From the NCBI GenBank assembly GCA_951406725.2, contig OX597818.1, positions 72,540,001 through 72,604,000 of the forward strand: a DNA stretch of 64,000 nucleotides, read 5' to 3'. The DNA comes from Octopus vulgaris. Taxonomy: Eukaryota. The notes beneath the pieces were generated by a model. The model worked only from the letters and a program-made list of their open reading frames with translations, had not been told where the DNA came from and did no database searches. This document shows, piece by piece, positions 17,961 through 20,159 of this stretch (position 1 is its first letter; each line of letters opens with the position of its first letter). Made by a program: the position numbers and the translations under genes.

Positions 17961-18163
17961 ATCAGAAATACTAAATTTCTAAATCTCTCGTAGAGACATG
18001 TACGGTGGTGGGGCGATAGAATGGTTGTATACTGTCAATCTAACACGAACGCTGTTTAGCCCTAGGAAGCATCGACGCCTCCTGATGGCTTTGACACATT
18101 TTTCCTGTGTCCTTATATACATTTACGAAGGGGAGACAAATACCCCCAGCCGCCCGGACTGCA

Positions 18164-18208
18164 TCTAGGGACACGTGTTTCAGGATGATTGTCCTTCGTC
18201 GGCCTAGA
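18164..18208 (-). ncRNA. Minimal type I hammerhead ribozyme (U4C variant)
   Basis: Minus strand reads tctagg CCGACGA agga caatca tcct GAAA cacgtg TC cctaga. Helix I is 6 bp, helix II is 4 bp, helix III is palindromic and the site is GUC. Confidence 0.75.
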
Positions 18209-18457
18209 CTAGCAGACACTGGTCAGCTGTTGATAAAATCTTTATTATGGGCACGAAGGCCCGAATTAAGAGGGGACTTTACAACAGACATGGGGTACAT
18301 ATAACAACAAAAAAATCGAAAAATATGAAGTGAAAATGAACTATTTATAATGAATTAAATGGAATGGCTTACGAGCCCCCCAAAACTCGCAGTTTCATTT
18401 AAAATACAATTTTACGATTTACAATTTTACAATTTTACAATTACATACATAACTCTG

Positions 18458-19797
18458 CTACGTCGGGCGCTCGTCTGTAATGTATTCTATTAAATCTTCC
18501 TGTTCTATAACAGCCGGCAAAGTTTCGTAACGTATATAATACAATTCAACAACATTAAACTCCAATTTCAATCTCATGATTGTCTCTCCCTCCATGATCG
18601 CCGCCTTCCAGTGGTCCGCATATAGTCTTGGGTTCAACTTCACTCTGATTAAACCTTTCCTACCTGCCAACTTCTTTTCCATATCTTTGTTCTTCAGGTA
18701 CAACATCACTATTTTGAGTCTCTTTCTCTTAGGTCTTCCTCCTTCCTTACATACTTTCAACTGCTTTTCCACTCTTCTGTGCCATCTGCCCCATTCTTCA
18801 TCTGTTGTTAATTTTGCCGGTTCACTTGCTTTTGCTTCTGCATTATTCTCTTCGCACGTTTGATCTTCCATTTCGTCTGTTGTCTTCTTTTTGTTTTGTT
18901 TTCTTTTTTTGAACTTTAGGTGGTGATTCCACCCTCGTTCTCTTTCTATCTTCTGTTCTTTCCTTTTCTTTCTCCAACACTTCACCACTTTCCACATCCT
19001 CTGCATTCTCACATTCCTCCTCCACATCCGCTATTTTCAACTCCTCCGTCCGGGCCTCCAATATCGTCGTCTCCTCCTGTATTCTTTTTCTCGGACACAC
19101 ATCCTTCATGTGGCCTCTAATTTTACATATGTAACATGCTGGGGGTCTCCCCTCCACCACGACTCTGAGACGTGTCTCGTCGGGGAACACCAACTCCTCC
19201 GGGATGTTATACAGGTCAGGCATTGTAATGTGGACTAACGCCTGCACTGCATAACCCCACCACTTTACATCTTTTGATTTTTCCACTTTCAATATTTCCA
19301 CGTTTTCTTTGCAGTTAAACACCACTGCCGCTAAAATCCTTTTATTCAGCTCCGGCGAAATCTTACTTATTCTTATTCTTACTGCCCTTTTCCCGCAGTA
19401 GCTTGGTAAACACCCATCTTTCTGTTTTCAAAATTTTCGTTGCGTTCCTTTTCGCTTCGTCTTCATTTTTAAAGTGAACGACCACCGTTGCGAATTTTCT
19501 GCCTCTGTTGTAGTAGGTAGATTGTCCTTCAATTCCTTTAAGAGAGCATTCAATTTCCTCTATCGGTGCCACTTCTATTTTCTTTGAAGTCACGCTCCAC
19601 GTTTTGTACGTTATAATCCGTTTCTCCGCTTCTTCCGCTTCTTCTTCGGGTGGTGTGACCTTCACACAGTCACCTTCCCTCTTCAAGCTGTCGAAATACT
19701 TGTTCAAAGTCTCCTTCTCGGTGATAACTTCTTCCAGCTGTAGTTCGCTCGCGGCCAGGCGCTTGCCTGCTGCTCCTGCATACGTTTGGGTTTCCAT
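18458..19797 (-). pseudogene. L1/Tx1-ORF1-like (Gag-like) nucleic-acid-binding protein, ~440 aa, with two frameshifts
   Basis: Three adjacent minus-strand ORFs can be joined. They give METQTYAGAA, an RRM-like segment FATVVVHFKNEDEAKR, RVVVEGRPPA-CYICKIRGHMKDVC (CX2CX4HX4C knuckle), an acidic/basic linker and an extra ~100-aa C-terminal region. Confidence 0.8.
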
Positions 19798-20159
19798 TTT
19801 CGAGAAAAAAATCTCAAAAACTTCACCACGCTGCAACAACTTCCACCACCGGATACGATCTCACGAACCGCGACACAACAATAACGTAATCAAAATATCC
19901 TACACCAAAACAACGAATTCGAACTCTCAATAACGTAATCAGAAATAACCGACACTAAAAAAAACGAACAACAAAAAAAGCGGGCGGGTGTTAATATTTG
20001 CCTCGACTCGTAATGTATATATCTAAATTTCAGTGAAGTCTATTCACTGATTATCAAAATCAGAAATACTAAATTTCTAAATCTCTCGTAGAGGTTTATT
20101 CTTATGTAATAAGAAGATATCTACGGTGGTGGGGCGATATATATGATATATATATATAA

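Follow-up and report, generated by a model that had tools for sequence, protein, structure and literature searches.

A single gene for a Gag/ORF1-type protein lies in the Octopus vulgaris genome between repeated ends that carry a hammerhead ribozyme, and the question raised by this locus is whether gene and ribozyme belong to one element or were brought together from several. The unit, of about 2.2 kb, was analyzed within a stretch of 64 kb (hereafter the window). The first-pass annotation had read it as one chimeric family, in effect a protein-coding retrozyme; the analysis indicated instead a retrozyme with an ORF1-only cassette nested in it (Table 1). We consider it probable that the cassette, lying between short duplications in a ~360-nt retrozyme at what is likely a snRNA-type promoter start, was placed there by the endonuclease and reverse transcriptase (RT) of an L1-group, likely Tx1-clade, LINE. 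The terminal blocks previously noted were recovered, exact over 35 nt (17961-17995 and 20059-20093) and 18 nt (18001-18018 and 20122-20139), between long TA flanks; a 5' partial tandem of the retrozyme, which includes a ~27-nt unrelated patch, is the source of these repeats. The minus-strand ORF was likewise present, although not as one frame: it is split into three pieces, the frame changing near 19411 and again between 18918 and 18880. A search of the octopus genome with the whole unit gave at least 96 matches (best 40 scored of 2,214 candidates), and the window copy was without a close whole-length relative, the best other matches being 80-85% alike.

Table 1. Features of the unit in the window, from upstream to downstream on the minus strand, and one cassette copy from elsewhere in the genome (last line)
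Feature	Position	Strand	Remarks
(TA)n tract, upstream flank of retrozyme	20137..20343	.	repeat array
5' partial retrozyme unit (end of 360-nt monomer)	19997..20139	-	monomer positions 263-357, 97% identity
ATCAGTG motif, likely PSE	20045..20051	-	56 nt before insertion point
5' copy of target duplication, degenerate; putative transcription start	19982..19996	-	11/15 matches to 3' copy
ORF1-only (HAL1-like) cassette: T-run, 5' UTR, ORF, 3' UTR	18236..19981	-	mosaic, two subfamilies
Broken ORF1-like gene: ATG 19797, stop 18458	18458..19797	-	~445 aa in intact copies
Domains of ORF1-like gene: two RRM-like, CCHC knuckle, charged linker, conserved C-terminal alpha/beta domain	18458..19797	-	
3' tail common to cassette and partner LINE: TGTAATGT-like motif, hairpin, AATAAA	18236..18290	-	
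Hairpin; AATAAA	18262-18249; 18246-18241	-	inside 3' tail
3' copy of target duplication	18221..18235	-	first bases of retrozyme monomer
Minimal type I hammerhead, core CCGACGA, palindromic stem III	18165..18207	-	predicted cleavage after 18170
Retrozyme family A body to fixed 3' end	17961..18235	-	
(TA)n tract, downstream flank	17803..17962	.	repeat array
Cassette copy L029, probably edited	~1500-3240 of L029; G000:C19:592110-593943	-	dense A>G over ~1 kb

By its predicted type I hammerhead fold and its monomer size (360 and 364 nt, from tandem copies; dimers occur), the flanking module is a non-LTR retrozyme, and self-cleavage is predicted. The same-strand minimal hammerhead reported earlier was retained, as a type I ribozyme with a variant core that carries U4C. 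A search of Rfam did not detect the window hammerhead, and of the stems only I and II formed when the single sequence was folded (z -0.8; z -2.6 for the extended hairpin). Stems I and II covaried across five retrozyme groups, being 75-100% paired despite different sequences when sites were anchored on the upstream motif. Core positions 3-8 were C-G in 32 of 35 parsed family A copies and U-A in 30 of 31 family B copies, and the U3-A8 variant matches one described in a passage of PMC4209133.

This module was found alone at many places in the genome. At least 73 matches were obtained with the hammerhead end alone as query (best 40 scored of 1,956 candidates) and at least 74 with a second retrozyme family (best 40 scored of 2,394), and cassette or LINE sequence was absent within 1.5 kb at 26 of the 30 best family A loci and at 26 of the 30 family B loci that were fetched. 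Inverted 5' arms and partial repeats were seen among the retrozyme copies, whose 3' end is fixed; this is the pattern given for Penelope-like elements (PLEs) in part of PMC8557442, and the copies ended in TA at 19/30 loci in each of the two families. The retrozyme is therefore an independent multicopy repeat with PLE-type ends in (TA)n, and in this respect the PLE/retrozyme character first ascribed to the ends was correct. In two public runs, presumably of RNA, contigs that are uninformative on start, strand, or level joined 18229-18235 to 19994-20008 and skipped the cassette. A young GIY-YIG Penelope-like family (L101-L130; copies 97-98% alike, with a CX-C linker) was also seen; no hammerhead was found in it within the stretches examined, and this one PLE family had no detectable sequence in common with the retrozymes.

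The cassette extends from a T-run after the short duplication to AATAAAGA. It had been proposed that the RNA end is made by the ribozyme, and this was not borne out, as the cassette ends at AATAAAGA and not at the cleavage site; the hairpin and AATAAA already recognized in its tail were located as described. An intact frame of 436 to 450 aa was present in several genomic copies. The predicted structure of one (mean pLDDT, 57; mostly 70-88 per block over residues 31-220) matched tandem RRMs, at a best E value of 2e-5, so that the RRM-like segment named in the first-pass annotation gained support from an intact relative. The CX2CX4HX4C knuckle named with it is present in the window ORF, with a weak Pfam zf-CCHC match (E 0.08). 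The C-terminal ~95 aa were kept across 14 cassette copies and gave no clear match in Pfam, the Atlas, or fold comparison (best Z, 4.8, to a generic alpha/beta sandwich). A homolog search with the intact cassette ORF1 found nothing, and a profile search gave 1,640 unnamed matches. The dN/dS comparison suggested earlier, over residues 1 to 240, gave 0.07-0.17 for 14 of the 15 pairings among six intact copies (closest pair, 0.51); as judged from these coding sequences, the intact copies are under purifying selection.

The cassettes also bore marks of movement. Short, 5'-truncated cassettes at unrelated sites were framed by duplications of 19, 12, and 15 bp (L162, L179, and L190, respectively), a script search for duplications found none at L163, L166, L180, and L186, and single full-length cassettes in retrozymes mostly had duplications of 14-18 bp. 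The cassette is thus HAL1-like, in that it has ORF1 only, 5' truncation, a target duplication, and a tail common to an autonomous LINE. Since the cassette occurs alone with LINE-type duplications and the hammerhead and terminal-repeat segment occurs alone as well, the notion of one chimeric family was abandoned. The window cassette is itself a mosaic, its 5' part being 91-96% like copies hosted by retrozyme B and its 3' part 89-96% like copies hosted by retrozyme A in most 200-nt intervals. When copy L029 was compared with L007, 129 A>G and 5 G>A changes were counted in the first kilobase, with 2 A>G changes upstream; a control pair gave 12 and 19 changes. By preceding neighbor, the A>G changes stood at 7/93 after G versus 31/42 after T. 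The excess of A>G and the avoidance of a 5' G suggest an RNA edited by ADAR and then reverse transcribed, and L029 would on this evidence be a fossil of a hyperedited RNA, with an ADAR-like mark of the RNA intermediate.

At several loci, the cassette shares its framing duplication with a 5.5-kb LINE, and either of the two may come first. This partner LINE has its own ORF1 plus an ORF2 with APE, RT, and zf-RVT domains, and shares its tail motif with the cassette. An intact ORF2 of 1,129 aa exists, for which the closest solved structure was L1 ORF2p (E 1e-62); the best named relative was from Argonauta hians (64%). The Tx1-type features found were the CCHC-knuckle ORF1, the L1-group APE-RT-zf ORF2, and the target preference, and from this architecture the partner LINE likely belongs to the Tx1 clade. 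No APE, RT, or zf-RVT match was obtained within the unit itself, in agreement with what had been stated, and the proposal that RT is borrowed in trans was judged right, the partner LINE with its common tail and intact ORF2 being the putative source. Elsewhere, a cassette was observed back to back with a divergent LINE, the second of the L1 group, whose ORF1 and ORF2 are both intact (L054, 586-3969; L019, 3425-4558).

The cassette ORF is homologous to LINE ORF1s (22-28% identity; 22% to the ORF1 of the partner LINE), as would be expected if the cassette were a LINE that had lost its ORF2. The first-pass annotation, which had taken the ORF as an ORF1-only, L1/Tx1-type protein, had named APE-RT after this ORF in other copies as the sign of such a deletion. 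In none of the examined copies did APE-RT directly follow the cassette ORF; where an ORF2 lay 3' of the cassette, the duplication and the LINE's own, different ORF1 intervened. Moreover, the cassette has its own conserved 3' UTR and C-terminal domain and appears to be under purifying selection, all of which speaks against a deleted LINE. Taken together, deletion of a LINE and chance nesting are exceedingly improbable, the latter being countered by the landing register.

This register was read from tail queries without retrozyme sequence. Among the best 30 of 43 cassette-tail matches, a count that is inflated by composite copying and that includes the query locus and tandem neighbors, the tail was followed by a hammerhead retrozyme in 18, by another element in the same site in 4, and by other sequence in 8; one of these 8 (L181) was by eye also another element, which leaves 7/30 elsewhere. 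LINE tails (best 30 of 41, again including the query locus and tandem neighbors) ran into a hammerhead retrozyme in 19 cases, another element in the same site in 5, base 1 of U2, its identity confirmed, in 4, and other sequence in 2. Exact-pattern junctions counted genome-wide were six tail-U2 and one tail-U1, the single tail-U1 junction coming from a related LINE and being without the motif on its 5' side. One of the tail-U2 junctions is an ORF1-only cassette before base 1 of U2, where the 5' duplication is poor, and elements preceding U5 were found at 0 of 15 loci. The scarcity of U1 and U5 insertions fits some sequence specificity. Cassette and LINE tails thus join diverged retrozyme families and base 1 of U2 at one register. 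It had been suggested that independent occurrence of the modules genome-wide would make the locus a chance nested insertion. Independent occurrence was indeed found; nesting by chance was excluded, because the register is fixed in most copies.

A common feature, an ATCAGTG motif, lies about 56-59 nt upstream of these landing sites and at -56 to -60 of the U1, U2, and U5 genes. With ATCAGTG scored at up to one mismatch, starting 53-61 nt before +1 or the duplication, the motif was present at 20/20 U1, 14/15 U5, and 13/13 U2 genes and at 20/27 copies of retrozyme A and 14/16 of retrozyme C, versus 0.2-0.4 in shuffled sequences. Retrozyme B scored 0/31 in this 7-mer test; it has ACAAGTGGATGTA, a two-mismatch variant that continues as in U2 and agrees with the longer U2 motif at 11 of 13 positions, as judged after the fact. 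A tally of 5' junctions with a looser form of the motif was set aside, since its pattern was likewise chosen afterwards and its set of loci was biased. In vertebrates, snRNA starts have a PSE about 60 bp upstream, according to a passage of PMC4494074. The 17 retrozyme-hosted LINE bodies were 97.0% alike and their hosts 80.5% (Spearman, -0.09), and U2-hosted LINE copies were 98.3% like the retrozyme-hosted ones. Since the LINE bodies are far more alike than their hosts and uncorrelated with them, these are independent insertions, made many times by one young LINE. Four U2-hosted copies begin with 14 additional 5' bases, 13 of which agree with a retrozyme start, and this suggests that donor RNAs begin at the +1 of the host. 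One U2 array (L221-L226; G000:C3:20.78-20.84 Mb) has 12 complete copies of U2, along with three full-length LINEs at +1, two of these in tandem; another LINE, truncated, separates two U2 copies, and the spacers contain decayed remnants that are ORF1-like.

Nesting as proposed could also result if the site were chosen by an endonuclease that reads DNA sequence or structure, or by pairing of read-through RNA, with the promoter as a by-product. The features recognized would be an ATC at the base of the long hammerhead stem and the 5' stem of U2. Targets do mostly start with ATC, several off-target sites start ATC-like too, and U2 (ATC) is used while U1 and U5 barely are; yet there is little target sequence in common beyond ATC, and near-identical LINE copies use both U2 and hosts that are only 70-80% alike. 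The target is, moreover, the 5' arm of a predicted hairpin, and Tx1-clade specificity is ascribed to the endonuclease in part of PMC4494074. Locus L290 (near G000:C8:54872270) points the other way: its truncated cassette has a PSE-like motif ~60 nt upstream, and the site belongs neither to a retrozyme nor to any Rfam RNA. Site choice by reading of the DNA is accordingly considered unlikely. Rfam named none of the off-target sites, and the sequence downstream of the L290 cassette, also without an Rfam match, may be a candidate unannotated snRNA-type gene.

Some composites appear to have moved as units. Four loci on four contigs have in common one deletion junction fusing retrozyme B to the cassette; their cassettes are 95.7-97.1% alike, versus 90% at most to others, and most have TA flanks. 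This shared junction indicates that some composites were later copied whole, so that "coding retrozymes" exist secondarily, and the movement of whole composites likely uses the retrozyme's route. The earlier label of a protein-coding retrozyme therefore holds for a secondary product and fails for the original element. Further cases are 5'-truncated cassettes followed by a retrozyme, without an upstream promoter and some with inverted arms (L291, L293, and L067), and a second composite set with its tail, a linker, and a rare hammerhead variant in common. All three kinds of copies would be at home in a unitary, self-cleaving, protein-coding retrozyme that a PLE-type RT copies as a unit and of which the window copy would be an example. 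That cassette and retrozyme each occur alone, that the cassette's 3' end is its own tail and its duplications are of the LINE type, and that the window copy has a mosaic cassette and no close whole-length relative all disagree with a unitary element, which would account for the spread of some composites and not for their origin; we regard it as quite improbable. A further locus, L292, was considered as a clean tandem of composite units and was rejected on inspection.

For the preferred reading, a nested insertion by the LINE machinery, the following course of events is proposed. The retrozyme would have been moved by a PLE enzyme, and its ATCAGTG would be a working PSE, with +1 at the first base of the duplication. 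Targeting would rely on snRNA machinery bound to the promoter, or on the open start site, the LINE nuclease itself having only a weak ATC preference. Inserted copies would be transcribed from the stolen promoter and end at their own AATAAA tail, and the cassette ORF1 protein may coat its own RNA and capture the LINE ORF2; the hammerhead, downstream of the cassette, would be dispensable for cassette movement. Retrozyme-plus-cassette composites would later be copied whole, as seen at some other loci. A more far-reaching version, for which we see the chances as evenly balanced, is that the LINE finds its targets via PSE-bound SNAPc or the Pol II start and not by sequence, that thousands of PSE-bearing retrozymes serve as safe landing pads and promoters, that the ORF1-only passenger is under selection, and that protein-coding retrozymes spread by a second (PLE) route. 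If true, this would be three-level parasitism involving two retrotransposition machineries.

Ty3 and TRE5 target Pol III starts at a fixed distance from a small-RNA promoter, HeT-A is a Gag-only partner of the RT element TART, and Terminons are multi-ORF arrays that end in hammerhead repeats. The insertions described here resemble those of Ty3 and TRE5 in their fixed distance from a small-RNA promoter and differ in that the promoter is of the Pol II snRNA type; as with HeT-A and TART, a Gag-only element is partnered with an RT element. Unlike in Terminons, the arrays arise from repeated insertion at one site and involve APE-RT, not Athena RT. The unit itself, unlike an autonomous Penelope-like element or Terminon, has no RT, and the RT of the composite arrays is L1-like with APE. 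Terminon hammerheads are mentioned in a passage of PMC7229834. Passages of PMC4494074 describe LINEs of the Tx1 clade whose targets are other elements or snRNA genes (Tx1 in Tx1D, Tx1-Mar in Mariner-N4, and Keno in U2), and the partner LINE resembles these, as described there, in its APE-RT, CCHC ORF1, multicopy target preference, 15-20 bp duplications, and tandem insertions. The target here differs, being the +1 after a snRNA-type promoter motif that unrelated sequences have in common. In the part of PMC4640811 consulted, the U2 downstream of Utopia starts at nucleotide 39, with Keno at the same site; unlike those of Keno, the present insertions are at base 1, with full U2 downstream. Like HAL1 (half-L1), as portrayed in part of PMC5753468, the cassette is a nonautonomous L1-group derivative that encodes only ORF1p, a type that arises repeatedly; unlike HAL1, it is from an invertebrate, is targeted to a site, has an ORF only 22% identical to that of its partner, and has an extra conserved C-terminal domain. 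The host repeats agree with the non-LTR retrozymes and nonautonomous PLE derivatives of 170-400 nt with type I hammerheads that are described in portions of PMC7229834 and a preprint (10.64898/2026.07.22.740005), and differ from known retrozymes in that they are landing pads and promoters for a LINE and that some are copied with a coding cassette.

Each part of this arrangement thus has precedent. What appears to be new is insertion at +1 of PSE-type starts common to U2 and retrozymes: in the open-access literature searched, neither LINEs that target retrozymes or PSE-defined starts nor such a targeting rule for non-LTR elements was found described. With this locus it becomes possible to test whether a LINE aims at Pol II snRNA-type starts, and nature supplies a set of targets of differing sequence and common promoter spacing. 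Insertion at +1 leaves a whole U2 downstream, severed from its promoter, and for site-directed gene insertion a LINE guided by promoters would be of interest. The composites point to a route by which noncoding ribozyme repeats acquire genes. A likely promoter of invertebrate retrozymes is also identified, a matter previously open outside newts, in which satellite 2 uses a snRNA-type promoter (as cited in part of PMC2220036).

Several further observations were made in the window. The 17-mer at 20055-20039 (minus strand), which holds the PSE-like motif and directly follows the retrozyme's fixed 3' end, matches sequence just downstream of U1 genes at 13/17 at best; it is possibly an overlapping snRNA 3' box, and the match may also be due to chance. 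A near-perfect inverted repeat of ~55 nt lies at 17305-17385, beside a (CA)n/(TA)n tract. Pieces of another LINE-like RT element, unrelated to the unit, lie at 23252-27255, with open frames at 23252-24136 (plus strand) and 25434-27255 (minus strand).
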